A stretch of 64,000 bases of DNA from positions 17,209 through 81,208 of the forward strand of contig JABWCK010000001.1 in assembly GCA_013360305.1 (NCBI GenBank), written 5' to 3'. The notes under the pieces were generated by a model that searched no databases, was not told the origin of the DNA, and saw nothing but the letters and a program-made list of their open reading frames with translations. Below are positions 8,550 to 57,744 of this stretch, piece after piece (positions within the stretch are counted from its first letter, which is position 1; each line of letters starts with the position of its first letter). Both the position numbers and the translations under genes were made by a program. The DNA is from Candidatus Micrarchaeota archaeon. GTDB taxonomy: Archaea > Micrarchaeota > Micrarchaeia > Norongarragalinales > Norongarragalinaceae.

Positions 8550-9311
8550 ATGCCTGTTAATAAGATTCCTTTTGGTATTCCTGGTTTGGATGAAGCCTTA
8601 AACGGCGGGATTCCGGAAAACAACTTAGTGTTAATCTCTGGAGGCGCTGGTACGGGTAAGTCAACGCTTTGCTTGCAGTACTTAGTTAACGGTGCTAAGA
8701 AAGGAGAAAAAGGATTATACATTTCAACAGAACAAAACCTAGCTGACTTAAGCAAGCAAGGAGAACAATACGGCTGGAACTTGCAGGAACTAGTAGACAA
8801 AAACCTGCTTCGAGTAGTATACATTGATATCATTAGGGAAGACTTTGTTTTCAAAAAAATCAAAGACTCAATACAAGACTTTAAACCCAACCGACTAGTC
8901 ATTGACTCACTAAACACTTTATCTGACTTTACTGCCAGCACTGACTTTGCTAGACAACTATACATGCAACGCGGAACAATGTCCCCCACTATATCAGACA
9001 AAGTCCTGCCAGAAAACTTGACTGAAAACTTGTTAAAGCGAAAAATAATGATGGCATTCCTATCAGAAATCAAAAACACCAAAACCACCGCCCTACTAAC
9101 AAGCGAACTACCCGAAAAAGGCGACTACCTCTCCGCAGACGGAGTCAGCGAATTCCTAAGCGACGGCGTGATAATACTGAACTACTTAGGAGTAGGCTTA
9201 ACCCAATTTAGAAGCATACAAATAAGAAAAATGAGATATAGCAACCATGAAAAAGATTACATAGGCTATGACCTCAAAGCGGGAATAGAAATACAAAAGG
9301 ACGTGGTATAA
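8550..9311 (+). CDS. KaiC-like RecA-superfamily ATPase (single-domain archaeal KaiC/RadA-like signalling ATPase)
   Basis: IPFGIPGLDEALNGGIPENNLVLISGGAGTGKSTLCLQY (GIPGLD + Walker A), typical of archaeal KaiC homologues; 253 aa. Confidence 0.7.
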   Translation: MPVNKIPFGIPGLDEALNGGIPENNLVLISGGAGTGKSTLCLQYLVNGAKKGEKGLYISTEQNLADLSKQGEQYGWNLQELVDKNLLRVVYIDIIREDFVFKKIKDSIQDFKPNRLVIDSLNTLSDFTASTDFARQLYMQRGTMSPTISDKVLPENLTENLLKRKIMMAFLSEIKNTKTTALLTSELPEKGDYLSADGVSEFLSDGVIILNYLGVGLTQFRSIQIRKMRYSNHEKDYIGYDLKAGIEIQKDVV

Positions 9312-9859
9312 TGTTCTCTACTTTAACTAGGCTAATGATGCATAAACAAATGATCATTAACGCAGGGGAAGTAAAAATTTTCGACAACAACGTAGTATTA
9401 AACCCCCTTAGTACAGAAGTTAGCCTATATACCGAACTAAAAAAAACAAATCAAGAAAAAATCATATATTACAGTGCTAAAAAAGCTGGAAAAGAATGGT
9501 TTGGCAACATGATCAACAAATACGGGATGAAAGCAAAAGACGTAATGACTTGGGGACCAGAATTAATTGATTTAGGCGGATGGGGAATAGTAAAACCACT
9601 TGAAGCAGATATGATGAAAAAAGAATTTACTTTTGAGTTACAAAAATCCACCTTCGCCAGACAATATGGCAAATCAACAGAAGCAGTAGATTACTATTTT
9701 AGAGGATTTGTCACAGGCGCATGGTCGGCAATAACTAATACCGAATTAGAAGGAATAGAAATAAAATGTGCAGCCAAAGGAGACGCGACTTGTAAATTCT
9801 TATTAAAGGAAAAAACAAAATTCGACTCAAAAGATCCATTAGTAATTAAACAACTATAA
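9311..9859 (+). CDS. V4R (vinyl-4-reductase) domain protein, partner of the KaiC-like ATPase
   Basis: C-terminal IKCAAKGDATCKFLLKEK matches the V4R C-x3-GD-x2-C-x-F signature; start overlaps the KaiC-like stop (ATGA), implying co-translation. Confidence 0.5.
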   Translation: MFSTLTRLMMHKQMIINAGEVKIFDNNVVLNPLSTEVSLYTELKKTNQEKIIYYSAKKAGKEWFGNMINKYGMKAKDVMTWGPELIDLGGWGIVKPLEADMMKKEFTFELQKSTFARQYGKSTEAVDYYFRGFVTGAWSAITNTELEGIEIKCAAKGDATCKFLLKEKTKFDSKDPLVIKQL

Positions 9860-13540: not shown

Positions 13541-14764
13541 TTATTTCACCAGCGTCTTGTGGGATAGTTCTAAAGCGTCAACGAACGATTGCACTTCACG
13601 CTTGTTGTTATAAACATAAAATGAAGCGCGGCAAGTAGACGTCAACCCCAAAGCATTCAATAATGGCTGCGTGCAATGGTGGCCGGAGCGGATGGCGATA
13701 TTCTTTGAATCGAGGATTGAAGCAACATCGTGTGCGTGGACTCCTTGAACGTTGAATGATAGTATTCCTAGTTTTTTGCTTGGGGCTGGACCATAAACAT
13801 CAACGTAGTTGGGTAGTATTTTGTGTGCGTAACTGGTTAAATCGCGTTCGTGGGCTAGTAACTCGTCAAAACCAATTCTTTGCAAGTAACGAACCGCTTC
13901 AGCTAAGCCTATTGCTCCAGAAATGTTAGGCGTACCAGCCTCGTATTTATACGGCAAATCATTCCAAGTGGTTTCTTGAATAGTTACTTCTCGAATCATG
14001 TCGCCACCAGTCAAGAATGGAGGTAATTCTTGAAGTAATTCTTTTTTTCCATATAAGACGCCGATTCCGGTTGGTCCTAGCATTTTGTGCCCTGACAAAG
14101 CAAGAAAATCACAATCCAATTTCTTAACATCAATAGGCAAGTGAGGCGCGCTTTGAGCAGCGTCTATTACGGTTAGAGCCCCAGCGTCTTTTGCTTGTTC
14201 GATTAATTGCTTGGCGGGAGTAATTACGCCAGTAGCGTTGGATGCGTGAGTGAATGCGAAGACAGTCGCGTTTTTTAGTTTGTTAAAGTCTTCAACATCT
14301 AGTTCGGCGGATTCGCTTAGTGACAAGTACTCGATTTTAGCTTTCGTTTTCTGGCTTAACAATTGCCAAGGCACGAAATTAGAGTGGTGATTCATTAACG
14401 TAGAAACAATCTTGTCATTTTTTGAAACAGGCAAGATGTTAGCAACTAAGTTTATTGATTCAGTCGCGTTTCTCGTAAAGATTATTTCTTCAGGCGAAGC
14501 ATTCAAGAATTCAGCAATAGATTCTCTAGCGTTTTCATACAATTCCGTTGCTTCTTGAGATAATTGATAGACTCCTCTGTGGACGTTAGAGTAATGGTTT
14601 TCGTAAAAATCCCTTTCAGCATCTAGCACTGAAGACGGTTTTTGAGTGGTTGCTGCGTTGTCTAGGTAGATTAGGTTTGGATTGTTTTTGAATATGGGAA
14701 AGTCTTTTTTCGTGTCGATCATTGCATTCTTACCTTCAATAGTTTTTCGCACTCGCTTCGCCAA
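13541..14764 (-). CDS. sufS: Cysteine desulfurase SufS (class V aminotransferase fold)
   Basis: LSGHKMLGPTGIGVLYG (PLP-Lys region), HHSN, C-terminal RSGHHCTQPL (active-site Cys loop); 407 aa. Confidence 0.85.
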   Translation of the reverse strand: MAKRVRKTIEGKNAMIDTKKDFPIFKNNPNLIYLDNAATTQKPSSVLDAERDFYENHYSNVHRGVYQLSQEATELYENARESIAEFLNASPEEIIFTRNATESINLVANILPVSKNDKIVSTLMNHHSNFVPWQLLSQKTKAKIEYLSLSESAELDVEDFNKLKNATVFAFTHASNATGVITPAKQLIEQAKDAGALTVIDAAQSAPHLPIDVKKLDCDFLALSGHKMLGPTGIGVLYGKKELLQELPPFLTGGDMIREVTIQETTWNDLPYKYEAGTPNISGAIGLAEAVRYLQRIGFDELLAHERDLTSYAHKILPNYVDVYGPAPSKKLGILSFNVQGVHAHDVASILDSKNIAIRSGHHCTQPLLNALGLTSTCRASFYVYNNKREVQSFVDALELSHKTLVK

Positions 14765-15867
14765 GCAGGGTTTTGGCTTTTGTCTATTATTTCTTGAGCA
14801 AAGCCTTCAATTATTAACAATTCAGCGTCGCGTTTTTTTAATCCTCGGGATTGCAAGTAGAATACGCTGTCTTTGTCTATGTGGCTGACGGACGCGCCGT
14901 GGCGAGATTTTACGTCATTAGTTTTAATCTCTAAAGCAGGCAAGGAGTTGGCTTTGGCTTTGTTGCTTAACAATAACGCTCGACCCATTAAGTGGGAGAA
15001 AGTGTTTTTTGCAGGGTTCTCGATTAAAATCATTCCTCTATGCACAGAGTTGGCTTCGTCGTCTAGTATTCCTTTAGCTAGCAAGTTGCCGGTAGTGTCG
15101 GGTACTGCGTGGCGAATGTTTGTTGACAAATCGCTTTCTTGCTTGTTTTTTCCAAAAAACAACAAGTAAGTATCGCTGTTAGCGTTTCTTCCTTCGAGAG
15201 AGGAATTGAATTCTTGAATTGTTGAAGAAGAACCAAAAGAAGCAGCAATCCATTGAAAACTAGCTTTTTCGCTTAAGACGCTTTTCTTTAAGGAATAATT
15301 TTGGCTAGTTATTGAAGCGTTTTCTAGAAAATTGTAGTCTGTCTTCGAGTTTTCTCCAATGAATACTTCAGAAAAACTAGTTGACGCGTTAGTTGAAGAA
15401 AAGTCTTCAAAGTAATCGAGCTTAGCGTTTTTTCCAGTAATTACTATAGAGTGAGCTAGGACGCTTTCGCCGGTAAAGCTTGTTTTCACGCTAGCCTCAA
15501 CATCCTCAGGAACTATTATCAAGCAGCCAGTGTTGAATAAGGCGAAATGCAAGGCAGCGTTTCGAGAAATTTCTGGATTTAATAATTTCTGGAAGTGTTT
15601 TTTTACTAGTGATTCTTCTTGTTGCAAGGCTGTTTTGAAATCTAAAACAATTGCGTTACCGCTTGATTCAAATTTAACGGCCGGAGAAGAATTGTTAGTT
15701 AAGTCGAGTGAAAAATTAGTGTATTTTTTTTGAGTAGGCGAGTCAGCTTCAACGTAATACTCGTTGTCAACCCATTTTTTCAACGCGTTTTTGCGTAGTT
15801 TCTCTAGCCACGAAGGCTCGTTGTTTAAACGGACTAGTTCATCGATTTTTTCTAATTGTTTATTCAA
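14719..15867 (-). CDS. sufD: Fe-S cluster assembly protein SufD
   Basis: Position between sufB and sufS; C-terminal half similar in composition to the SufB C-terminal beta-helix (LIIEGF, KSRHGASVSHIDKDSVFYLQSRGL); 382 aa. Confidence 0.6.
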   Translation of the reverse strand: MNKQLEKIDELVRLNNEPSWLEKLRKNALKKWVDNEYYVEADSPTQKKYTNFSLDLTNNSSPAVKFESSGNAIVLDFKTALQQEESLVKKHFQKLLNPEISRNAALHFALFNTGCLIIVPEDVEASVKTSFTGESVLAHSIVITGKNAKLDYFEDFSSTNASTSFSEVFIGENSKTDYNFLENASITSQNYSLKKSVLSEKASFQWIAASFGSSSTIQEFNSSLEGRNANSDTYLLFFGKNKQESDLSTNIRHAVPDTTGNLLAKGILDDEANSVHRGMILIENPAKNTFSHLMGRALLLSNKAKANSLPALEIKTNDVKSRHGASVSHIDKDSVFYLQSRGLKKRDAELLIIEGFAQEIIDKSQNPAWRSECEKLLKVRMQ

Positions 15868-18494
15868 CCTACTGCACCTAGTTTTTCCATTTCCAAGTGA
15901 ATCAATCGATTCAATTCAACTGAAAACTCGAGAGGAATTTCCTTCATTACGTCATCCAAGAAACCTAACACTATCATTGAGCGAGCGTCTGCTTCATTCA
16001 AGCCGCGGGACATCATGTAAAACAATTGTTCGTCACTAATCTTGCCAACGCTGGCTTCATGAGTAAACGACGCAGTTGGTTCATAAATCTCGTTATGAGG
16101 ATAAGTATCGCTTCGTGAATCCTTGTCTAGAATTAAAGCATCGCATTGGACGTGGCTCTTAGCATTTAACGCCCCGGCATTAATTCTTAACAAACCCCGG
16201 TAAACAGACACTCCACCGCCTGACGAAATGCTTTTAGCAATCACTTTAGACGTAGTGTTTTTGCCAATGTGAAGCACTTTAGCACCGCCGTCCTTCCACG
16301 TATCTGAAGTGCCGAAAGCAATGTTCAAGTGAGACGCGCTCGAATTGTCGCCTTTCAAAATAGTCATTGGATACAACATTGTCAGCTTGCTGCCCAAGCT
16401 TCCGCCTACCCACTCCATTTTAGCATTCTTGTCAACAATAGCGCGTTTAGTGTTCAAATTGTAAACATTCTTGCTCCAGTTTTGGACAGTAGTATAACGC
16501 ATTTTAGCGTTGTCGTGAACGAAAATCTCTACTATAGCAGAATGCAGCGAGTTAGTCGTATACTTTGGCGCCGTGCAATTATGCACTGCAACGCCGCCCG
16601 CGACATAAGATTCGTCTTCATCGACGCTAAAATTGTAAACAGGCAAATCAACTACTTCTTCGAAAGAAATTGTTTTTACAGGAACAAAAGCATACTTTTC
16701 AGTAATATGTGCATATGACTTTGCTAAACTTGCTTGAGAAAGTTTTTGTAGTGCTATTTGTCTTTCTACTGCGAACTCATTAACAGGTTGAGCGTTTACG
16801 ACGTTTGCAAATTTCTGTAGAAATGAGCCGCCGACGTATACCGTGTGCATCACGTGCTTGTTTGCTCTTTCTTGAGAGTTTATTCCTGCAAAAACATCAA
16901 GCCTTAACAACACGTCGCGTAATTGTCTGGCTAAAGTTGAAGAAACCGTGTTCATTCTGAACATTCTTTTTATTCCCCAAGAATATTGTTGGTACATATA
17001 ACTTCCGTCTCCTCGCCAGAATCCTTTAATTAATTCTGCTTGTTTTTCGGGAGACTCGTGAATTACCCATAAAGGTAATTGTTTGGTGTGTGCGTGGTGA
17101 TTAAATTCTGAGTTAAAGAATCTGGCCGCCTTAGTCGAACACAACGTTAAAGAAATTCCGTTGTTTCTAATTTTTCCTTGAATCGGTTCTTTCTCAAAAT
17201 ATTTTAATAAAAGGAATTTGACGTCTTCGAGATATTCTTTTTCTTTAACGTTAAACGTAAAGCTGACGTAGTGTCCGCCGATAGTAGTTCCTTCAGACAA
17301 ATAATATCCTAATAGCCGGAAAAAGTCTTTGTCGGTTCTTAATGCGAGAGTAAACGAATTAAATTTCCCTTTACTCTTTCCAAAATTAACATTAAAAACG
17401 CGCACGTCACTAGACATCACTTCCCGGTCAATAGGCATCGCTAAATAATCTCCTTTTTGAATGTTGTTTACAGGGCTCCAATCAGGATTCCAAGTGGTGT
17501 TCTTGTATTCTGCGCGTTCTTTCTTTACTACTAAAAAGGGGTGTTCTTCGGTTGCTTTAATTTCAGCTTTGCTATCCCCATAATAAGTGACCGAATAAAG
17601 TTTTCCCGAATAAGGCCTAACTTGAGTGTGATAAACAGTTTTGAACCGGTTTTCATGAGTTAATACTTTTTCTCCAACCGTAACTTCTTCAATTGGTTTG
17701 TCACTTGTTTCGGTTTTTACTGGTGTGCCTTTAACAAAACATCCTTCGACGTAATGGCCTTCGCTTCCTTCTTCTGCAACGATTAAAGTATGCTCGAATT
17801 GTCCTTCGTTGGCAGCGTTCATTCTGAAATAAGTTTGAAAAGGCAAGTCAACCTTTACGCCCTTAGGAACGTAAAGAAAACTGCCACCACTCCACACTGC
17901 GCCATGCAATGCAGCGAACTTGTTGTCAGTGTAAGGCACGCACTTCATGAAGTATTTCTTTACTAAGTCAGGGTGTTTTTTTAAAGCAGAATCCATATCC
18001 ATGAATATTACGCCTAAGTCGTCGTAAATTTTCTTGACGTTAGCGTAAACGCTAGTCGACTCGTATTGAGCAACGCTGCCGGCTAAGTATTTTCGCTCTG
18101 CTTCAGGAATACCGAGTTTTTCGAAAGTGTCTTTGATTTCTCCCGGAACATCCTCCCAATTCTTAGCGTTTTCAGCAGCCATTTCCGGAGTAATGTAGTA
18201 ATACATTTCTTGAAAATCAATTCCACTCAAGTCAGCGCCCCAAACCGGCATTGGCCTGCGCAAGAATTCATTGAAAGACTTCAAGCGGTGTTCAAGCATC
18301 CATTCCGGTTCTTGCTTTAATTTAGAAATTAGTTTAACTGTTTCAATAGACAATCCTTTCGGTATTTTTTTGACTTTAGCCGCGTCCTTGAAGTCGTACT
18401 TGTTCAAGTCAATTGAGGGAATGTCTTCTATTCTTTCAACTGATTCAACCAAGAACAACACCCTTAACGTATTCAGCGTAGCCTTTTTCTTCAA
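15864..18494 (-). CDS. sufB: Fe-S cluster assembly protein SufB, interrupted by a 388-aa intein
   Basis: Extein sequence is typical SufB (FQTYFRMNAANEGQFEHTLIVAEEGSEGHYVEG | ... | CTAPKYTTNSLHSAIVEIFVH...GGGVSVYRGLL...FYMMSRGL); extein length ~488 aa after removing the intein. Confidence 0.85.
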   Translation of the reverse strand: MKKKATLNTLRVLFLVESVERIEDIPSIDLNKYDFKDAAKVKKIPKGLSIETVKLISKLKQEPEWMLEHRLKSFNEFLRRPMPVWGADLSGIDFQEMYYYITPEMAAENAKNWEDVPGEIKDTFEKLGIPEAERKYLAGSVAQYESTSVYANVKKIYDDLGVIFMDMDSALKKHPDLVKKYFMKCVPYTDNKFAALHGAVWSGGSFLYVPKGVKVDLPFQTYFRMNAANEGQFEHTLIVAEEGSEGHYVEGCFVKGTPVKTETSDKPIEEVTVGEKVLTHENRFKTVYHTQVRPYSGKLYSVTYYGDSKAEIKATEEHPFLVVKKERAEYKNTTWNPDWSPVNNIQKGDYLAMPIDREVMSSDVRVFNVNFGKSKGKFNSFTLALRTDKDFFRLLGYYLSEGTTIGGHYVSFTFNVKEKEYLEDVKFLLLKYFEKEPIQGKIRNNGISLTLCSTKAARFFNSEFNHHAHTKQLPLWVIHESPEKQAELIKGFWRGDGSYMYQQYSWGIKRMFRMNTVSSTLARQLRDVLLRLDVFAGINSQERANKHVMHTVYVGGSFLQKFANVVNAQPVNEFAVERQIALQKLSQASLAKSYAHITEKYAFVPVKTISFEEVVDLPVYNFSVDEDESYVAGGVAVHNCTAPKYTTNSLHSAIVEIFVHDNAKMRYTTVQNWSKNVYNLNTKRAIVDKNAKMEWVGGSLGSKLTMLYPMTILKGDNSSASHLNIAFGTSDTWKDGGAKVLHIGKNTTSKVIAKSISSGGGVSVYRGLLRINAGALNAKSHVQCDALILDKDSRSDTYPHNEIYEPTASFTHEASVGKISDEQLFYMMSRGLNEADARSMIVLGFLDDVMKEIPLEFSVELNRLIHLEMEKLGAVG
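16578..17741 (-). mobile_element. Intein with LAGLIDADG homing-endonuclease domain inserted in SufB
   Basis: Starts with Cys right after HYVEG (CFVKGTPV...), ends ...VAVHN followed by +1 Cys (CTAPKY); two dodecapeptide motifs LLGYYLSEGTT and LIKGFWRGDGS; boundaries counted codon by codon from the start at 18494. Confidence 0.7.
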
Positions 18495-19248
18495 GTTTTA
18501 AGGCTAGTTCTTTTCCGCCGCTTTCAACGATTTTACCATCAACCATTACGTGAACGAAGTCCGGCTTCAAGTAGTGAAGTATTCTCTGGTAGTGAGTTAT
18601 TACTAACAAGCCTATCCCTTCCTTGTGGGCTTTTTGAACTGCTGAAGCAACGCTCTTCACAGCATCAATATCCAATCCGGAATCAATTTCGTCCAACACC
18701 GCGAATTTGGGTTGTAAAACCATTAATTGAAGTATTTCCGCGCGTTTTTTTTCTCCACCAGAAAAGCCAGCATTCAAGTAACGCGAAGAAAAAGACTCGT
18801 CGAAACTCAAGTCCTTCATTTTTTCCTTTAATAATTTTTGAAAAGCAGCAACGTCTTGCAATGAATTAGTTTTTTTGTGAATTGAATTATAAGAATTTCT
18901 CAAGAAAGTAGAAAACTTGACTCCAGGAACTTCAAACGGGTATTGAAATGCTAAAAACAATCCCTTCCTAGCCCGCTCGTCAGGACTCCATTCCAGAATA
19001 GACTCGCCATCAAGCAAAACGTCGCCCGAAGTAACTTCATAATACGGGTGGCCCATTAAAACGCTAGACAAAGTGCTTTTCCCTGAACCGTTTGGCCCCA
19101 TTATTGAATGAAGTTCGCCCTTCCTTACTTTTAAAGAAACACCTTTCAGTATTTCTTTTCCTTCAATGGATGCGTGCAAGTCTTTAAACTCTAGAATTTC
19201 TTTCAAAAAAACCACCAATATTACGCGTTTCGCTTGGCTTCCCAGCAC
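18445..19248 (-). CDS. sufC: Fe-S cluster assembly ATPase SufC (ABC ATPase)
   Basis: Walker A GPNGSGKST, ABC signature FSGGEKKR, Walker B FAVLDEIDSGLD, H-loop ITHY; 267 aa. Confidence 0.85.
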   Translation of the reverse strand: MLGSQAKRVILVVFLKEILEFKDLHASIEGKEILKGVSLKVRKGELHSIMGPNGSGKSTLSSVLMGHPYYEVTSGDVLLDGESILEWSPDERARKGLFLAFQYPFEVPGVKFSTFLRNSYNSIHKKTNSLQDVAAFQKLLKEKMKDLSFDESFSSRYLNAGFSGGEKKRAEILQLMVLQPKFAVLDEIDSGLDIDAVKSVASAVQKAHKEGIGLLVITHYQRILHYLKPDFVHVMVDGKIVESGGKELALKLEEKGYAEYVKGVVLG

Positions 19249-19570: not shown

Positions 19571-20443
19571 ATGAAAATCACAATAATCGGCGCCGGAGGA
19601 ACTGGTTCTTTCGTCTGTCAAGAACTCGCTAAACTAAAACAAGTAAGCGAAATAACACTAATAGACCGAGACGTAGTCAGTGAAGAAAACCTTTCAAGAA
19701 GCGACTTGTTTGAAAAAAAAGACGTAGACAAATTTAAGGCACTAGTGGTTAGCAGCAAGATAAAAAAAGTAATTCCTCGAGTATTCAATTTAGACTCCGG
19801 AAACATTCACCAATTAATAAAAACAAAGCTTTTCATTGACTGCACAGACAATTACGAGACTCGAATGCTTTTAGACGAATACGCCAGAAAAGAAAACAAG
19901 ACGTGGATTTACACCGCAGCAATCAAGTCATTCGGAATGGTTTCAACCATTACTCCAACGCATTGTTTTGCTTGCTTTGCCAAGAAACCAAAACACACTT
20001 ACTCCTGCAACGAACTAGGCATAGAAAAAAAAGTCTTAAAACTAGTAGCCAAAAAAACAGCGAAAGAATTCTTACTATTAATAAAAGAAAAACCCGCTTT
20101 AGTTGAGGAATTGTGGTTTGTTGATTCCGCAACTAGTGAAGAAAAACTAATCCCCCTGCCTAATTGCAAATGCAACAATAAATTCAATTACTTGAAGAAG
20201 AAAACTAGAAAAATAGTGTTGTGCGGAACAAACGAGTTCTTATTCATTACAAACAAGAAAAACACTGCGACGCAATTAACAACTAAACTAAAAGAATTCG
20301 CGCCAGCAAACAAGGAATTGTTTGTTGAATTATTATTCAAAGAAGGAAAAGCCCGAGTGTTTCCCGATGGACGAATCATTACGACTCAATTAAGCGAAGA
20401 AAAAGCAGTTCAACTATCTAAAACAATAGAAAAAAAACTATGA
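19571..20443 (+). CDS. ThiF/MoeB/HesA-family E1-like adenylyltransferase (UbaA/MoeB-like; second E1-type gene in the window)
   Basis: MKITIIGAGGTGSFVCQELAKL (Rossmann GxGxxG); IDRDVVSEENLSRS; two Cys pairs (CFACF...YSC; PNCKCN); 290 aa. Confidence 0.7.
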   Translation: MKITIIGAGGTGSFVCQELAKLKQVSEITLIDRDVVSEENLSRSDLFEKKDVDKFKALVVSSKIKKVIPRVFNLDSGNIHQLIKTKLFIDCTDNYETRMLLDEYARKENKTWIYTAAIKSFGMVSTITPTHCFACFAKKPKHTYSCNELGIEKKVLKLVAKKTAKEFLLLIKEKPALVEELWFVDSATSEEKLIPLPNCKCNNKFNYLKKKTRKIVLCGTNEFLFITNKKNTATQLTTKLKEFAPANKELFVELLFKEGKARVFPDGRIITTQLSEEKAVQLSKTIEKKL

Positions 20444-22809: not shown

Positions 22810-22934
22810 CGGGCCCAGGGGGATTTGGACCCCCGACATTTCGATTTCTTTCAAAAATTTAGGAAAGTTTTGATGCAACTTTTCCTAAAAGTTGCTAAGA
22901 GTCGAACGCTCTGGCCAAACTGAGCTATGGGCCC
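22810..22934 (-). tRNA. tRNA-Lys (CTT) with a ~50-nt intron at the canonical 37/38 position
   Basis: Minus strand GGGCCCA-TA-GCTC-AGTTTGGCCA-GAGC-G-TTCGA-CTCTTA[intron ~50 nt]A-TCGAA-ATGTC-GGGGG-TCCAAAT-CCCCC-TGGGCCC-G; all four stems pair; anticodon CTT. Confidence 0.7.
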
Positions 22935-32117: not shown

Positions 32118-32591
32118 TTAAATTATCCTCGGCTTGTTGGGTTTTTTATCCTCGAAAACACCTTCAAGTGCGTTAGGGTTTTGTTCAAAAAATTTAGCCG
32201 CTTCCTTGTTCAACGGATCCCTCGGGTTGGGGTGTTTCAATAAGTGTTCCAATGCCTTAACTACCGAAACCACTGTTTGGTTCTCGCTCCAATCATTAAC
32301 TAATTGAATGCAAACAATTCCATCTTCTGCCCGAATATTTGGGTGAAATATTGGCGTAAGCCAGTAAACCATTATTCCTCCCGGGTAAGGATAACTGCGC
32401 AACAAGTCTATTTCTGCAGTGTGGGATTCTCTTTTCATCAAAGAATTATTTTGCTTATGCAACGCCGGCCCGTGCACGGTTACTACGTACTTGTTTTTTT
32501 CAGGATTAACTTCAAACTTGAATCCCGATGAAAGCATTTGATTATATTCGCTTTGCAAGCGGCGGTTGTATATTTCCGAAGGTAATTCCAT
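32118..32591 (-). CDS. Ubiquitin-conjugating enzyme E2 (UBC fold)
   Basis: NRRLQSEYNQML...YPYPGGIMVYWLTPIFHPNIRAEDGIVCIQLVNDWSENQTVVSVVKALEHLLKHPNPRDPLN: HPN motif, catalytic Cys, the Trp and the PNP.DPL motif of eukaryotic UBC domains; 157 aa. Confidence 0.85.
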   Translation of the reverse strand: MELPSEIYNRRLQSEYNQMLSSGFKFEVNPEKNKYVVTVHGPALHKQNNSLMKRESHTAEIDLLRSYPYPGGIMVYWLTPIFHPNIRAEDGIVCIQLVNDWSENQTVVSVVKALEHLLKHPNPRDPLNKEAAKFFEQNPNALEGVFEDKKPNKPRII

Positions 32592-32855
32592 TCAAAGCGC
32601 CTCTTTAACAGACTGAATTCCTTCCCTGCTCAACCCACGAATAGCTATGTAGTGATAATTAGCCTGCATTCCAATGCTTTCTGCCCGCGCGTTAGAAAAG
32701 TTTTGTTGAAAAAACGAATTCAAACTCTTTATCGTCGGTTCTGGAGATGGGTTGTTGATGGTGTTGAGTTTGATTATTATTTCAGTATCCGTGAATTCGG
32801 CCTTCAAAGAATAAGGTTTTAGTTTGGAAGCTAGTTTCTCGAAAAACTCGTTCAT
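32592..32855 (-). CDS. Hypothetical 87-aa protein translationally coupled to the E2 gene
   Basis: Stop abuts the E2 start codon (32592/32591); no Cys, no motif. Confidence 0.4.
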   Translation of the reverse strand: MNEFFEKLASKLKPYSLKAEFTDTEIIIKLNTINNPSPEPTIKSLNSFFQQNFSNARAESIGMQANYHYIAIRGLSREGIQSVKEAL

Positions 32856-32890
32856 GTCATTACTTACTCAAGAAAAGAATAAACGCTTTT

Positions 32891-33736
32891 CTACAACCAG
32901 CCTTTCTTCTTCATCCACAAGGCGGCGGTTAGTGTTACTATTATTTGGCCGACAATTACTGCCGGATACGCCCATTCGATTGCTAATTCGGGCATGTATA
33001 TGAAATTCATTCCAAAGTGTCCTGCTATGATGTTTGGAATCATTAAAACAATCGTTATTCCTGTCAATCTTTTTACTACGAGGTTCAATTCTTCAATTCT
33101 CTTGTTAGTTTCTTTAGTTTGTTTAGAGTCAATTTCCCACTGAATGTCCCTCAACTGGCTTAAATGGTTTCTACAACGGTCGAGTAATTGTTGCGCTTTA
33201 GTGTAAACCAAGTCGTAATCGTAAGCAACCAATCCCGTGTTTACTTGTTTTATTTTTCTTTCTTCCAAACTAGTCAACAATATTACGAAGTCTTCGATTC
33301 TGTTAGTGAGTTTTCTTAATTTTACCGTCGCGTCTTCTACGATTTCTGCTTTCAAACCTTTTTCTATTACGTCAATGTTTTCGTCTATTTGGTTGAATGT
33401 TTGCTGATAGTTTTTGACTATTGCTCTGAGCGTAAGCAAGCTCAAAACCGAACTCTCTCCGTATTGTTTTTGCATTGAAATGCGAAACATTTTGTAATCA
33501 TTGTCGTTGAATTGCTTGTTTTCCGAATAAAGCAAGGCGTTTTTCTCGCTGAGCAAAAGAATATTGTTTTTTGGTTCATTAGTTCCGTTATAGTCGCGCA
33601 CGCTGATGATTACGTAATCTTCGTAAGACTCTAAGAAGACGATGTTTAAACTAAGCAATTCATCCAAGTTTACGGCTACGCCTAGTTCAATAGCTCTTTT
33701 TTTAAAGTCGTCAAAATTAACGAAGGTTTCAATCAT
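32891..33736 (-). CDS. corA: CorA-family divalent-cation (Mg2+/Co2+) transporter
   Basis: C-terminal GMNFIYMPEL plus two TM helices (CorA GMN motif); 281 aa. Confidence 0.65.
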   Translation of the reverse strand: MIETFVNFDDFKKRAIELGVAVNLDELLSLNIVFLESYEDYVIISVRDYNGTNEPKNNILLLSEKNALLYSENKQFNDNDYKMFRISMQKQYGESSVLSLLTLRAIVKNYQQTFNQIDENIDVIEKGLKAEIVEDATVKLRKLTNRIEDFVILLTSLEERKIKQVNTGLVAYDYDLVYTKAQQLLDRCRNHLSQLRDIQWEIDSKQTKETNKRIEELNLVVKRLTGITIVLMIPNIIAGHFGMNFIYMPELAIEWAYPAVIVGQIIVTLTAALWMKKKGWL

Positions 33737-33765
33737 TGCTAAATGAATTAACTATTTAGTTGTTT

Positions 33766-34014
33766 TTAAGCTGAGCCCCCTGTTGGATCAGGGATTAATA
33801 GCAATTTAGCTCCTTCTGTCAGACCCGCATCTTGAATCGTGAGCGTCGGTTCGAGTATTTTGTTGTCTTCAGTGGATAAAATAAACCTGTCTTTTAACTG
33901 CAAGTTTTCCATTAATACTTCCAAAACACTTTGGATTGTGAATTCTGGCTCCACTGCCATAGTTATTTCTTTACCTGAAGTAGTTTGAATAATCACGATA
34001 TTAAACTCAGTCAT
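33766..34014 (-). CDS. Ubiquitin homologue (beta-grasp), precursor form with C-terminal GG followed by Ser-Ala
   Basis: IVIIQTTSGKEITMAVEPEFTIQSVLEVLMENLQLKDRFILSTEDNKILEPTLTIQDAGLTEGAKLLLI...TGGSA aligns position by position with eukaryotic ubiquitin ([34 protein letters not shown]...LVLRLRGG); 82 aa. Confidence 0.85.
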   Translation of the reverse strand: MTEFNIVIIQTTSGKEITMAVEPEFTIQSVLEVLMENLQLKDRFILSTEDNKILEPTLTIQDAGLTEGAKLLLIPDPTGGSA

Positions 34015-34076
34015 TTGCTTTTCACCACTTTTTATTTTCGGAAAGAGATTTTATATTAGTTTTGAGTGGTTCTTAT
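34015..34076. promoter_or_regulatory. Divergent AT-rich promoter region between the ubiquitin gene and the GG-protein/JAMM/RING operon
   Basis: TTTTTATTTT and TTTTATATTA TATA-like boxes in a 62-bp divergent spacer. Confidence 0.3.
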
Positions 34077-34724
34077 ATGCCTGCGGATTCAGATGATTTG
34101 AAAGAGTATAGTTTTGCTGAAAGCGATTTCGTTGCTAAGAAAAAAAAGCCAGAGCCCTTCGTCAGTGGAGCCGTTGAACGTTCCGTTGACGCTGAACCCA
34201 AACCAGATTTAAAACCCGCCGCCCCTAAAGAAATTACTCCCCAGCCAAAAATCGTTTCACCCACTAGACCTGCAGTTTTCGTTACCGGCATTGTACAAAA
34301 AGAAAAAACCCCAAAAGAAGAGCCAAAGACTGAAGACTCTCGAGTAATCGATTCATTACCTAAAGAAGAGCCTTTGAAAGTAACTGAAGAAGAAAAGCCA
34401 AAGAAATTATTTGAAGAAAAAAAACCAGAAGTAAAAAACGTCAAGCAACCCGAAAAAAAACCAGCCGTAAAGAAAACCGTTGACTGGAGCTTGTTTGATG
34501 AAGCTGTTTCTAAAGGAAAGACGCCCAACCAAGCCGTAGAACTAGCTACTGACAAAGACGTAGTAAAACAAATACGCCAAGACGCTTCAGCTGATATTTT
34601 ACCTGTCCAAAGAAGCGTCGACCGAGCATTAAACAAGGAAGCTCAAGCGCAGGAAGCCATTCGAAAATATGAAGAAAACAAAGCAAAGAAAAAGGGTTTT
34701 CTTCAAAAACTCTTTGGCGGTTAA
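34077..34724 (+). CDS. Lys/Glu/Pro-rich intrinsically disordered protein ending in Gly-Gly
   Basis: Start taken at ATG 34077 (ORF track uses TTG 34062); KPEPxxK/EEKP low-complexity; terminal ...KKKGFLQKLFGG-stop; the opposite-strand ORF (34073-34636) is an S/F/G antisense artefact. Confidence 0.45.
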   Translation: MPADSDDLKEYSFAESDFVAKKKKPEPFVSGAVERSVDAEPKPDLKPAAPKEITPQPKIVSPTRPAVFVTGIVQKEKTPKEEPKTEDSRVIDSLPKEEPLKVTEEEKPKKLFEEKKPEVKNVKQPEKKPAVKKTVDWSLFDEAVSKGKTPNQAVELATDKDVVKQIRQDASADILPVQRSVDRALNKEAQAQEAIRKYEENKAKKKGFLQKLFGG

Positions 34725-34726
34725 CC

Positions 34727-35158
34727 TTGTACGAAATATACTTCGAACCAACTCCATTCAAGCAAGCATTAAGCCATTTTAAACGCGAAGCAGGAAAAAA
34801 CCTTGAAGCACTAGGCTTATTGCTCGGAGAAGTGCGAATTCACAACGGCAGGAAGTACGTGGTAGTAAAGGAATACGTTACTGCAGAAAACCACGCGTCA
34901 AGCATTTCGGTTCGATTTACTCAAAACGCATTCAAAGAACTGTCTCCAAAACTAAGCGACAAAATAATCGTTGGATGGATTCATTCACATCCTTCGTATG
35001 GTTGTTTCTTGTCCAGCACTGACGTGCGCACACAACAAGCCTTCTTCAACGAAGACTATAACTTTGCATTCGTAATAGATCCCGTTCAAAATGATTACCG
35101 CGCGTTTAGAGTAAAAAACGGACGGTATTATGAAGTTTCATTCGCAGTAATTGATTAA
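34727..35158 (+). CDS. JAMM/MPN+ metalloprotease (Rpn11/JAB1-like deubiquitinase/Ub-precursor peptidase)
   Basis: EALGLLLGE (conserved Glu) and GWIHSHPSYGCFLSSTD (HxHx7Sx2D zinc motif); only a TTG start is available in-frame; 143 aa. Confidence 0.8.
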   Translation: MYEIYFEPTPFKQALSHFKREAGKNLEALGLLLGEVRIHNGRKYVVVKEYVTAENHASSISVRFTQNAFKELSPKLSDKIIVGWIHSHPSYGCFLSSTDVRTQQAFFNEDYNFAFVIDPVQNDYRAFRVKNGRYYEVSFAVID

Positions 35159-35863
35159 ATGAAGAAAACAAAACGCAAGGAAAAAATCAAGGGCTTCGAC
35201 AAAAAATTGTTCGAAGTAGTTTCTAGCGGAGTCACTAACAAGAAAATCATTCTCGAATCCCTAGTCGTAGACGAAGGAGAATTCGACAAACGCGTTTCTT
35301 CACTGATTAAAAAGAAATTATTCGTCTACTCCGGCGAAGACTTGAAACTAGGCATTAACGCATTCGACTACTTTAAGGAAAAACCCAAGAAGACAAAACC
35401 AAAAGAAGAATCCTTAATCGAAAAATTATCTATTCCAGAAAACCCTATCGTCGTACAAACTCCTCCAAAAATCGAGCCTGAAACGAAAGAAGAACCAAGA
35501 ATAGACTTAGATTCACTACTACGTTCGGGCGCTCCAAAAGAAAACGTAATGCAAAAAACCCTGGAAGACAAGGTACTCGTTGTTTCAAGTCCACAACAAT
35601 TATCTGCCGCTGTTGGGAAGCCATTAATGACTGAAGGAGAAGAAGCCTGCGAATTATGCAAAGCAAACTTCAAGTTAAACGTCAAAAACACTTCCGACTC
35701 CAAATACGGCCACTGCTTCTGTGGGGCTGCGTATCATAAGGATTGTTATTCTGCATTACTTAATGGAACAACTCGCTGCGTTCGCTGCGGAAGAAAACTA
35801 GAACTAGTATTAGACAAACAAACAGAACAAGCACTCAAAGGACTACGCGGAGTATTCGATTAA
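35159..35863 (+). CDS. C4HC3 RING/PHD-like zinc-finger protein (candidate E3), N-terminal wH-like region
   Basis: C-terminus CELC-x18-CFC-x4-H-x2-C-x10-CVRC = C-x2-C...C-x-C-x4-H-x2-C...C-x2-C treble-clef pattern; ATG follows the JAMM stop directly (TAAATG); 234 aa. Confidence 0.5.
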   Translation: MKKTKRKEKIKGFDKKLFEVVSSGVTNKKIILESLVVDEGEFDKRVSSLIKKKLFVYSGEDLKLGINAFDYFKEKPKKTKPKEESLIEKLSIPENPIVVQTPPKIEPETKEEPRIDLDSLLRSGAPKENVMQKTLEDKVLVVSSPQQLSAAVGKPLMTEGEEACELCKANFKLNVKNTSDSKYGHCFCGAAYHKDCYSALLNGTTRCVRCGRKLELVLDKQTEQALKGLRGVFD

Positions 35864-36594
35864 TGCAGCGGACAGTCTCTTCTTTGAGAAACCTCGTAAA
35901 TCACTACTTCATTCTTTAACCCATTAAAGAAAGCGTATTTTCCAACTAACGCAGGCAATCCGTGAACTAGCTTGATGAATTCGTTTACTTGCATTGAAGC
36001 AATAACGCTAGTCGTCGTCGCTAAAGCAGGCATTTTAGAACTCATAAAGTCCAAAACTTCTCCCACGCAAGAATATTTTTTCCACAAAATCTTGTAATCG
36101 CTCTTAGTCAAAGAACACTCTAAGCACGCAGTCTTGTCAACTACTTGAATTTTACCGTTAAACGCGTTAGTTCCACCGTCAATTAAAATTATTTTCCCGA
36201 AACACTTAGCATTCAAATGAATCCTGGCAGCTAAGTTGTCAAGACAAGAAAAACAATAATCAAAACCCGCAAAGAATTCCTCACTCAATTCTTCCAACCG
36301 CTTGTCAACTGCAGTAATCTCGCTGGAATTGTTTAGTTTTTCCGCCTTCTCCTTCAAAACAAAACACTTCTTCTTCCCTACATCTTCAAGGGAAAAAAAC
36401 ACGCACCTATTCAAATTAACTTCCGCAATCTCGTCATAATCAACAATAGTAATCTTTCCTACTCCTAGTTGTACTAGTAACTTGACTGCTTCATTGCCTA
36501 ACGCTCCCGCTCCCAAGACTAAAACGTTCTTTGAACTAATTTTTTCCTGGCTCCAACCTTGAATTCTTTTTTGTCGATCGAAAACGTCAGTCAC
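35860..36594 (-). CDS. Ubiquitin-activating E1-like enzyme (ThiF/MoeB/UBA family)
   Basis: RQKRIQGWSQEKISSKNVLVLGAGALGNEAVKLLVQLGVGKITIVDYDEIAEVNLNRCVFF (E1 adenylation-domain signature); candidate catalytic/zinc Cys (KTACLEC); 244 aa; convergently overlaps the RING gene stop. Confidence 0.75.
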   Translation of the reverse strand: MTDVFDRQKRIQGWSQEKISSKNVLVLGAGALGNEAVKLLVQLGVGKITIVDYDEIAEVNLNRCVFFSLEDVGKKKCFVLKEKAEKLNNSSEITAVDKRLEELSEEFFAGFDYCFSCLDNLAARIHLNAKCFGKIILIDGGTNAFNGKIQVVDKTACLECSLTKSDYKILWKKYSCVGEVLDFMSSKMPALATTTSVIASMQVNEFIKLVHGLPALVGKYAFFNGLKNEVVIYEVSQRRDCPLH

Positions 36595-57628: not shown

Positions 57629-57744
57629 GGGTCCGTAGCTCAGCCTGGATAGAGCAATTGCCTTCTAAACTTTTTTGTTAAAAAGTTTAATCAAAAAAGC
57701 ATGAGGAAAGCAAGAGGTCGGGGGTCCGAATCCCCCCGGACCCG
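57629..57744 (+). tRNA. tRNA-Arg (TCT) with a ~41-nt intron at position 37/38
   Basis: GGGTCCG-TA-GCTC-AGCCTGGATA-GAGC-A-ATTGC-CTTCTA[intron]A-GCAAG-AGGTC-GGGGG-TCCGAAT-CCCCC-CGGACCC-G; upstream TTTTTATCTATAT TATA-like box; downstream oligo-T (TTTTATTTTATT). Confidence 0.7.

Follow-up and report, generated by a model that had tools for sequence, protein, structure and literature searches.

Whether archaea of the DPANN lineage Micrarchaeota possess a ubiquitin-like protein-conjugation system of their own is a question raised by one stretch of DNA, a segment of 64,000 nucleotides (hereafter the window; contig JABWCK010000001.1 of assembly GCA_013360305.1, positions 17,209 to 81,208). An earlier reading of its letters alone, called here the sequence-only reading, had proposed that a ubiquitin, an activating enzyme (E1), a conjugating enzyme (E2), a JAMM protease, and a RING- or PHD-like zinc-finger protein are encoded side by side in the genome of a reduced, AT-rich, possibly DPANN-like archaeon, and that they could represent a new instance or variant of archaeal ubiquitylation. 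The DNA indeed comes from a Candidatus Micrarchaeota metagenome-assembled genome (MAG), and all five genes are present in the six-frame list of open reading frames (ORFs), packed within 4.5 kb. Furthermore, protein families, predicted fold, and gene order agree with the core of the proposal. Judged from such comparisons, the probability is about three in four that the cluster is a chromosomal, vertically maintained ubiquitin-like conjugation system of Micrarchaeota. The cascade acting on its ubiquitin-like modifier (Ubl) is real and probably functional.

A profile scan with the E2, covering one genome per GTDB species, returned 261 relatives. The best ~50 all belong to MAGs classed as Micrarchaeota, Micrarchaeia, or Norongarragalinales, with identities of 39-74%, and are followed by proteins from Bathyarchaeota, Sigynarchaeum, Loki-type Promethearchaeota, Hermod- and Hodarchaeota, and Thermoplasmata. 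None of the matches came from acidophilic Micrarchaeales (e.g., ARMAN-2 or Mancarchaeum), at which no search was aimed. Synteny was assessed by searching the ORFs of the fetched loci with the window proteins, and loci were considered informative when the sequence upstream of the E2 gene measured 5 kb or more. By this measure, 39 Micrarchaeota species loci are informative and the five-gene core is complete in 37 of them, the other two lacking only the E1 gene within the flank. Clustering of this kind goes far beyond chance. The recurrent order is (AAA-winged helix-turn-helix)-Nre-DTD2-E1, convergent with a unit of zinc-finger protein, JAMM, and (disordered protein), followed by the divergent pair Ubl-E2 and then Lhr. 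In the window as well, the JAMM gene adjoins that of the zinc-finger protein and is divergent from the Ubl gene. The flanking genes are less constant than the core, with DTD2 present in 29 of 37 loci, Nre in 13 of 24, and Lhr in 21 of 42.

The sequence-only reading had regarded the arrangement as different from that of known systems and split over both strands, a claim that holds in part. Two divergent units with a convergent E1 gene are a trait of the whole family. The separation of Ubl from E2 by genes for a CorA-like transporter and an 87-residue protein (orf87) is not, and these two genes are a genome-specific insertion that probably forms no part of the system. Among ~50 Micrarchaeota loci, their occurrence at this position is limited to the present genome and locus L001, which is the same organism in the Logan assembly of SRR8490538. 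The ancestral layout has Ubl next to E2, as seen in the closest relative (L002, whose E2 is 74% identical). The gaps around the two genes measure just 0-35 nucleotides, and orf87 abuts the start of E2. No Pfam, NCBIfam, or PADLOC family matches orf87, whose only homologue among the fetched loci is that of L001.

Evidence regarding the modifier is best taken from its fold. When the Ubl or its profile was searched against the sequences of the Protein Data Bank (PDB), a single ubiquitin copy was reached at E=0.015-0.25, which is modest sequence-only support, and structure prediction combined with fold searching was relied on instead. A sequence-only proof that the Ubl is ubiquitin was dropped, the very low E-values being sums over the repeats of polyubiquitin. 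With an alignment of 45 homologues, AlphaFold2 produced a confident beta-grasp (predicted local distance difference test, pLDDT, of 84; topology bbabb). The PDB matches returned by Foldseek for this model include ubiquitin and ubiquitin variants, the ubiquitin of Caldiarchaeum (CsUb; 6fno, 6fnn, 6fj7), SUMO, ISG15, TINCR, and bacterial BilA, with template modeling (TM) scores of ~0.8 and 24-30% identity to ubiquitin. Among Pfam models, TUG-UBL1 passes its threshold (25.0 bits, cutoff 23.3) and Rad60-SLD falls just short (22.5 bits, cutoff 23.8).

The ubiquitin type assigned to this 82-residue protein at the outset therefore stands, although two details of that assignment do not. It was said to align residue by residue with ubiquitin, whereas BLASTP against human ubiquitin gives 29% identity with two compensating three-residue indels, placing GG on G75-G76, K15 on K11, and K52 on K48. 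It was also said to end in GG, and the actual end is PDPTGG-SA, with a two-residue propeptide. Residues beyond GG (1-26 of them) are likewise found in 8 of 48 orthologues, and the remaining 40 terminate exactly at [IM]PDPTGG. Across the 45 database homologues, residues E3, T12, K15, V33, L38, L40, K41, D42, R43, L46, L73, and P75-G80 (the PDPTGG tail) are invariant, and K52 is nearly so. Conservation of K15 and K52, the equivalents of ubiquitin K11 and K48, leaves chain formation possible. Of all genes in the neighbourhood, that of the Ubl is conserved best, with a mean pairwise identity of 68% compared to 41-51% for DTD2, Lhr, and Nre, a pattern that many interaction constraints would produce.

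A search of the whole library with the Ubl profile also recovers genuine eukaryotic polyubiquitin (P0176) and other small Ubls (one from Methanofastidiosia) whose tail reads PDP[TE]GG. More informative are two natural Ubl-E2 fusions on metagenome contigs (P0180, 255 amino acids; P0182, 260 amino acids), in which IPDPTGG leads directly into an E2 that has the HPN motif and Cys and ends in PR[IV]V. These fusions link Ubl and E2 functionally, and they imply proteolytic release after GG. Another metagenome contig encodes a tandem double Ubl with a C-terminal membrane segment (P0166, 289 amino acids).

The E2, identical to protein HUU53_00290 of Candidatus Micrarchaeota archaeon, was readily confirmed as a UBC-type enzyme with the HPN, catalytic Cys, and PNP.DPL features first ascribed to it. 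It scores 69.1 bits against Pfam UQ_con (E=3.9e-19, gathering cutoff 27) and matches 246 eukaryotic E2 chains in the PDB, the best at E=4e-12. Across 22 homologues, H83-P84-N85, Cys94, and P121-N122-P123..P126-L127-N128 (PNPxDPLN) are invariant or nearly so, and P68-Y69 of loop 4 and W101 of loop 7 are invariant. Mutagenesis in Caldiarchaeum has demonstrated that loop-4 PY and loop-7 W/S motifs mediate RING binding (PMC5654768). The N-terminal LPxxIWxRRLxSE of the Micrarchaeota protein resembles LPENAWYRRLALEY of the Caldiarchaeum E2. At the opposite end (C-terminus at 32118-32150, minus strand), the tail reads KPRII, and a motif of the form [KRGP]P[RK][IVL][IVL] closes 49 of 52 Micrarchaeota E2s. 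A few of these proteins already are labelled 'ubiquitin-conjugating enzyme' or 'ubiquitin-protein ligase' by NCBI and JGI.

Identity of the E2 amounts to 24% with eukaryotic counterparts, 33-39% with those of Asgard archaea and Bathyarchaeota, and 50% with those of other Micrarchaeota. In a rough neighbour-joining distance tree (155 columns, with eukaryotic and Caldiarchaeum sequences that were entered by hand or taken from text obtained by optical character recognition), the Micrarchaeota enzymes cluster on their own (bootstrap support 66%). Eukaryotes plus Caldiarchaeum (84%) and Loki-type archaea plus Bathyarchaeota and Sigynarchaeum (100%) form two other groups, both apart from Micrarchaeota.

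The proposal of a ThiF/UBA-type E1 is equally well borne out, in the form of a compact enzyme of 244 amino acids that scores 171.9 bits against Pfam ThiF (cutoff 28.1). Its best PDB relatives are the active adenylation domain of eukaryotic Uba1 (7e-25), UBA6, and SAE2, behind which rank ThiF (1e-19) and MoeB (1e-17). Orthologues share an invariant GxGxxG motif together with C64, C117, C157xxC160, C176, and C241xxH244. The position of C176, 16 residues past CxxC, suggests that it corresponds to the crossover-loop cysteine of ThiF, MoeB, and UbaA, making it the candidate catalytic residue.

For the JAMM/MPN+ protein, an intact HxHx7Sx2D site had been recognised from the letters, and the comparison with solved structures agrees. 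The protein scores 49.3 bits against Pfam JAB (cutoff 22.5) and 27.8 bits against Prok-JAB. Its best PDB relatives are Rpn11 (1e-12), CSN5, the Rpn11-like protein of Caldiarchaeum (6fjv, 6e-9), and AMSH. The catalytic Glu and HSHPx7SxxD align with Rpn11, leaving the active site intact, and the protein is predicted to process the Ubl and to remove it from conjugates. The NCBIfam desampylase model gives only 23.7 bits with a cutoff of 130. Indeed, all cluster proteins are far under the cutoffs of NCBIfam equivalog models, and thus none is a member of a recognised prokaryotic family.

The zinc-finger protein begins with a winged helix of the MarR/ArsR type (residues 11-70) and continues through a disordered linker to a C-terminal C4HC3 binuclear finger (residues 164-210), after which there is a helix. 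Its 35 homologues, all from Micrarchaeota and publicly annotated as 'hypothetical', establish the C4HC3 finger that had been claimed. They share the pattern C-x2-C-x17-HC-x-C-x4-H-x2-C-x10-C-x2-C, in which C164, C167, H185, C186, C188, H193, C196, and C210 are invariant and C207 and L166 nearly invariant. Assignment of this finger to the RING/PHD-like class, which was part of the same claim, is still sub-threshold. The window protein has a faint match to Pfam zf-RING_2 (E=0.27), and sub-threshold matches to zf-RING_2 and Prok-RING_1 are obtained for 29 and 19 of the 35 members, respectively. These are also the two best Pfam models for the family consensus, which spans the whole zf-RING_2 model at E=0.0076, compared to E=5.9 for PHD_2. 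A profile of the finger alone finds nine PDB matches, all of them RING E3s or near relations of these, of which eight are RING domains (AMFR, Pirh2, Not4, Cwc24, RNF24), with weak E-values of 0.08-4. One of these alignments, likewise with a weak E-value, runs end-to-end along the RING of yeast Not4 (5aie) and has the spacing C-x-C-x4-[C/H]-x2-C in common with it. Together, these three independent weak lines of evidence favour a RING over a PHD finger or other treble clef, and a role as ubiquitin ligase (E3) is likely but unproven.

Ligand spacing provides a further comparison. The arrangement C-x2-C...C-x-C-x4-[C/H]-x2-C...C-x2-C is shared with the CNOT4/Not4 RING, and for both this family and Prok-RING_1 all scores are under significance and curated cutoffs. 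The Not4 RING has C4C4 spacing, and Prok-RING_1 is the prokaryotic RING family of Burroughs, Iyer and Aravind. Unlike these, the Micrarchaeota finger uses His as its fifth ligand and is fused to a winged helix. Also, the linker carries a conserved short helix, (I/V)DLxxLLxxGAP, at residues 112-127 (D116 invariant, L117 nearly so), which could be a binding motif.

The first gene of the JAMM operon encodes a disordered protein of 220 amino acids that has no match to any Pfam, NCBIfam, or PADLOC family. In most Micrarchaeota loci, a gene with similar composition and end motifs is located upstream of JAMM. The versions carried by relatives (L002-L054) have KPR[IV]V once or twice at the start, continue with an acidic-YS[FL] element, and finish with an amphipathic GFFxKLKxxLG[FLM]x. 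Because the KPR[IV]V peptide is common to this protein and to the extreme C-terminus of Micrarchaeota E2s, a shared docking site is suggested, possibly one that replaces the missing ubiquitin-fold domain of the E1. The disordered protein itself is probably an adaptor or regulator. It had been labelled a 'GG protein' at first, and a role as second modifier was considered. That role was rejected, as no locus other than the window and L002 has the terminal GG, and the protein is of low complexity and disordered.

If the components work like their homologues elsewhere, the Rpn11-like JAMM would first trim GG-SA to expose Gly80; in most relatives, the coding sequence terminates at GG to begin with. 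The compact, homodimer-type E1 would adenylate Gly80 and bind the Ubl through a thioester to Cys176 of the crossover loop, from which the Ubl would pass to Cys94 of the UBC-fold E2. Acting as a RING-type E3, the zinc-finger protein would bind loop 4 (P68-Y69) and loop 7 (W101) of the E2 and promote discharge onto substrate lysines, and its MarR-like winged helix would choose DNA-bound or other specific targets. Finally, JAMM would also reverse the modification. For the Caldiarchaeum homologues, processing of pro-ubiquitin by JAMM, transfer from E1 to E2 to RING, and deconjugation by JAMM have all been reconstituted (PMC5654768, PMC6043591).

Several findings weigh against a conjugation system and must be accounted for. 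The E1 is a single domain that has neither a dedicated catalytic-Cys domain nor an E2-recruiting ubiquitin-fold domain. The Caldiarchaeum E1 has four domains, including a UBL (PMC5654768 supplement), and E1s of eukaryotes and of Caldiarchaeum clusters I/II recruit E2 through the C-terminal ubiquitin-fold domain (PMC5654768). Micrarchaeota E1s measure ~245-280 amino acids and end 0-5 residues past the ThiF alignment. No orthologue examined has a C-terminal ubiquitin-fold domain or extension, so the domain is absent. The Ubl scores 15.9 bits against Pfam ubiquitin (PF00240), under the gathering cutoff of 25.4, and therefore is best named ubiquitin-like rather than ubiquitin. The best RING scores of the zinc finger are 12-17 bits (16.9 at most) where the curated threshold is 27.3, and its AlphaFold2 model is of low confidence (pLDDT 45-75). 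Its E3 role is the weakest link of the proposed cascade. Lastly, co-evolution was not demonstrated by a correlation test. Spearman correlations of pairwise identities with those of E2 are 0.71 for Lhr and 0.59 for DTD2, and ~0 for Ubl and E1, and in terms of pairwise distance Ubl, E1, and JAMM show little or no correlation. This mixed outcome is probably due to alignments that are short or saturated and to ORF starts that are imperfect, and it was not used.

The alternative that survives best, though still improbable, is that Ubl and E1 serve mainly as a sulfur-carrier pair (SAMP/Urm1/MoaD/ThiS type) in tRNA thiolation or cofactor synthesis, with conjugation absent or secondary and E2, JAMM, and zinc-finger protein unrelated or accessory. 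Systems of this kind (SAMP/UbaA/HvJAMM1, Urm1, ThiS-ThiF, MoaD-MoeB) share with the Micrarchaeota cluster a beta-grasp protein ending in GG, a compact ThiF-like E1 that has a zinc site and a crossover-loop Cys, and JAMM processing or deconjugation. The E1 of the window fits the description in that it is ThiF/MoeB-like, carries a CxxC...CxxH zinc site and the crossover-loop Cys typical of sulfur-transfer E1s, and has no ubiquitin-fold domain. It also gives NCBIfam matches to ThiF, MoeB, and UbaA, all of which are sub-threshold (for UbaA, 76.6 bits with a cutoff of 450). Two orthologous Ubls are annotated 'molybdopterin converting factor small subunit' by JGI. Moreover, archaeal SAMPs and Urm1 are dual-function proteins (PMC4571572).

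Such sulfur-carrier systems, however, have no E2 or E3, and their modifiers are MoaD/ThiS-like. The possibility that the window protein is a carrier of this type had been raised at the start, and the fold search speaks otherwise: its neighbours are ubiquitin, CsUb, SUMO, ISG15, and BilA, MoaD and ThiS do not appear among the top 50 PDB matches of Foldseek, and scans of the Ubl with Pfam and NCBIfam yield no ThiS or MoaD match. Among PDB entries, Uba1, UBA6, and SAE2 are nearer to the E1 than ThiF and MoeB are, and the enzyme carries no rhodanese domain. Along with this E1, ~50 species retain an E2 whose active site is intact, a JAMM, and a RING-like protein, and fusions of Ubl to E2 exist. Sulfur chemistry is probably served by a second ThiF-family gene in the window, which adjoins genes for SufBCD and cysteine desulfurase. 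A dual role in conjugation and sulfur transfer is possible.

A less probable alternative is an antiviral defence system related to Bil (BilABCD), CBASS Cap2/Cap3, or 6E/Bub-type operons, which would tag viral or signalling proteins on infection. Bacterial operons with Ubl, E1, E2, and JAB genes are reported to act against phage (PMC10557695), and BilA-type Ubl structures (8tyx, 8tyz) are among the Foldseek matches. PADLOC gives weak JAB/BilC matches (E ~1e-3), and its Cap2 'E1-E2' models match the Rossmann half of the E1. Yet these E1 matches do not exceed 51 bits, are confined to residues 10-130, and are far weaker than the ThiF match (172 bits). PADLOC has no match for E2, Ubl, or zinc-finger protein. 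The cluster occupies a fixed housekeeping and DNA-repair setting (DTD2, Nre, Lhr) across ~50 species instead of variable islands. Its E2 is a canonical UBC protein with HPN and without the CEHH motif of the BilB type (described in PMC11354881). A scan of viral contigs with the E2 revealed no archaeal-virus copy and only distant giant-virus (GVMAG) relatives (L082-L090), with 27-42% identity over partial lengths.

Eukaryotic contamination, a caveat of the sequence-only reading, or recent transfer from a eukaryote to the archaeon is scarcely credible: eukaryotic proteins are the best solved-structure matches of E2, E1, and JAMM, which carries little weight because eukaryotic members dominate the PDB, and against this origin stand the location of all genes within a Micrarchaeota contig of 107.9 kb that also carries archaeal markers (tRNAs with introns, Nre, DTD2, aTrm56, TFE-alpha, and NurA-HerA-Mre11-Rad50), an even GC content across the window (about 0.38-0.40, within 0.33-0.42), the lower identity of the E2 to eukaryotic than to Asgard and Bathyarchaeota proteins and its separate place in the tree, and the compact arrangement in two divergent operon-like units with synteny over ~50 Micrarchaeota species.

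A ubiquitin-like conjugation system of Micrarchaeota thus is the preferred reading, and it can be compared with the archaeal systems already described. Caldiarchaeum subterraneum (Aigarchaeota) has an operon of ubiquitin, E1, E2, and srfp-RING genes with an adjacent Rpn11-like JAMM gene, reportedly described by Nunoura in 2011. The same five functional classes are clustered in Micrarchaeota, and there are likenesses at the protein level: a ubiquitin-fold modifier with GG (CsUb, 6fno and 6fj7, has 24-25% identity to the Micrarchaeota Ubl), a propeptide past GG that implies JAMM processing, a JAMM of the Rpn11/CSN5 type, and an E2 with the archaeal N-terminal LPExxWxRRL helix, loop-4 PY, and loop-7 W. 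There are also differences. The Micrarchaeota E1 consists of the adenylation domain alone, and the JAMM operon has the conserved disordered protein in addition. The E3 of Caldiarchaeum is a small RING-H2 protein, whereas the Micrarchaeota candidate combines a winged helix and a C4HC3 finger with the Not4-like spacing C-x-C-x4-H-x2-C in 234 amino acids. Modifier tails read PDPTGG in Micrarchaeota and TRTVGG in Caldiarchaeum, where the propeptide has nine residues, as against two or none in the Micrarchaeota system. The two E2s are just ~30% identical and belong to different groups of the tree, and the hosts are members of DPANN and TACK, respectively.

The nearest sequence relatives outside Micrarchaeota are found in clusters of Asgard archaea, Bathyarchaeota, Sigynarchaeota, and Thermoplasmata (L052-L081), with E2 identities of 31-39% and E-values of ~1e-49 for E1 and ~1e-20 for JAMM. 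As in Micrarchaeota, the E1s are compact (290-300 amino acids), a small Ubl gene adjoins E2, and the E2 ends in a short hydrophobic tail motif. The genes JAMM-E1-E2 are co-directional in Asgard archaea and the Ubl gene is convergent, in contrast to the divergent Ubl-E2 and disordered protein-JAMM-zinc finger units and convergent E1 of Micrarchaeota. E2 tails differ as well. In place of KPR[IV][IV], the Asgard, Bathyarchaeota, and Sigynarchaeum proteins (L052, L053, L055-L080) close with an extended acidic stretch and then [IVL]4-[DE]D (e.g., DDDDIIIIDD), which looks like a SUMO-interaction-type motif. Hidden Markov models (HMMs) of the whole winged helix-zinc finger protein and of its finger have no match in the Asgard, Thermoplasmata, or Bathyarchaeota loci. 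A different protein of 300-400 amino acids, not homologous to it by HMM, is encoded in Asgard loci L056-L079 (e.g., L057, 5444-6475, minus strand) a few kb from JAMM-E1-E2. This protein has a C-terminal eight-Cys module, CLVCKx9-10C(P)xCx4CxxCx11CWxC, and may be the RING-like partner of the Asgard cluster.

Parallels with the eukaryotic ubiquitin, NEDD8, and SUMO cascades include the ubiquitin-fold modifier with GG, the UBC-type E2 with HPN and Cys, lysines at the positions of ubiquitin K11 and K48, an E1 adenylation domain nearest to Uba1, UBA6, and SAE2, and an MPN+ protease nearest to Rpn11. Identities are low (24-29%), and the Micrarchaeota system has a single-domain E1, one E2, and one candidate E3. 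Its JAMM is a stand-alone MPN core of 143 amino acids without the Ins-2 or C-terminal lid-assembly helices of the eukaryotic counterparts, and its modifier ends in PDPTGG rather than the LRLRGG of eukaryotic ubiquitin.

The concept of archaeal ubiquitylation is already established, and Micrarchaeota would extend such systems to DPANN, with a function that here is wholly inferred. Discussion of archaeal E1/E2/RING ubiquitylation has been almost entirely restricted to Aigarchaeota and Asgard archaea, where it serves as evidence on the origin of eukaryotic complexity. A full-text literature search turned up no paper that connects a ubiquitin system with Micrarchaeota or DPANN; one long paper, PMC7203096, mentions both terms. 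The word 'ubiquitin' does not occur in the main DPANN and Micrarchaeota genomics papers. A toolkit that is stable in ~50 species of a reduced-genome DPANN lineage provides a wider phylogenetic base for reconstructing the evolution of the cascade. Its retention in genome-reduced, probably host-dependent cells argues for a core function. The system is also a very small version (244-residue E1, 157-residue E2, 143-residue JAMM, and 80-residue Ubl), and could reveal how E2 is recruited without the domains of eukaryotic E1s. Because the components are small and single-domain, the whole cascade should be testable in vitro.

The candidate E3 joins a RING-like finger and a DNA-binding winged helix in one protein, a hint that its substrates are on DNA. 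A more ambitious and rather doubtful version of the preferred reading holds that Ubl, E1, E2, a DNA-binding winged-helix RING E3, an Rpn11-like protease, and a disordered adaptor would make up a minimal complete ubiquitin-type system, inherited vertically, with chromatin-bound or DNA-repair proteins as its targets, and a prokaryotic parallel to Rad6-Rad18-type signalling. On this view, should the system go back to the ancestor of DPANN and be connected to its Asgard and TACK versions by descent and not by transfer, E1-E2-E3 ubiquitylation would be older than the Asgard-eukaryote lineage and would have been kept even in extremely reduced symbiotic genomes. It is suggested by the MarR-type DNA-binding fold of the E3 and by the position of the cluster among genes for Lhr, NreA, 3-methyladenine glycosylase, a RecJ/GAN-like protein, and NurA-HerA-Mre11-Rad50. 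Coordinates for the cluster are collected in the table.

Table. Genes of the ubiquitin-like cluster, with positions in the 64,000-nucleotide window
Feature	Position	Strand	Basis or remark
E2 (UBC-type conjugating enzyme, 157 amino acids)	32118-32591	-	ORF list, Pfam UQ_con
orf87 (87 amino acids)	32592-32855	-	ORF list, no family
CorA-like Mg2+/Co2+ transporter	32891-33736	-	Pfam CorA, 84.7 bits
Ubl modifier (82 amino acids, C-terminus ...LLLIPDPTGG-SA)	33766-34014	-	AlphaFold2 beta-grasp, Foldseek
Disordered K/E/P-rich protein (220 amino acids)	34062-34724	+	First gene of the JAMM-zinc finger operon
JAMM/MPN+ metalloprotease (Rpn11-like, 143 amino acids)	34727-35158	+	Pfam JAB
Winged helix + C4HC3 zinc-finger protein (234 amino acids), candidate E3	35159-35863	+	Homologue alignment
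Compact E1 (ThiF/MoeB/Uba-type adenylation domain, 244 amino acids)	35860-36594	-	ThiF; convergent with the zinc-finger gene

The wider neighbourhood contains a run of DNA-repair genes that surrounds the cluster (29333-51346) and encodes an Lhr-type helicase, NreA, an AAA+ winged helix-turn-helix protein, 3-methyladenine glycosylase, a RecJ/GAN-like DHH protein, a beta-CASP nuclease, NurA, HerA, Mre11, and Rad50. The Lhr and Nre neighbourhood recurs in about half of the related loci. The second ThiF/MoeB-family protein, of 290 amino acids (19571-20443, plus strand), is probably the sulfur-transfer E1 of the genome, and its gene adjoins the SufC-SufB-SufD-cysteine desulfurase operon (13541-19248, minus strand). 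Within this operon, the SufB gene (15864-18494, minus strand) is split by an intein with a LAGLIDADG homing-endonuclease domain, as judged from Pfam Hint_2, Intein_splicing, and LAGLIDADG_3 matches between SufBD_N and SUFBD_core. Two tRNA genes with presumed introns, one of 125 nucleotides (22810-22934, minus strand) and one of 116 (57629-57744, plus strand), are found by Rfam and missed by ARAGORN. Elsewhere in the window, a probable surface protein of 1465 amino acids (4110-8507, plus strand) has Laminin_G_3, Big_9, He_PIG, and cadherin-like domains, and its gene is followed by a stretch (8550-9859, plus strand) for a KaiC-like ATPase and a V4R-domain protein.

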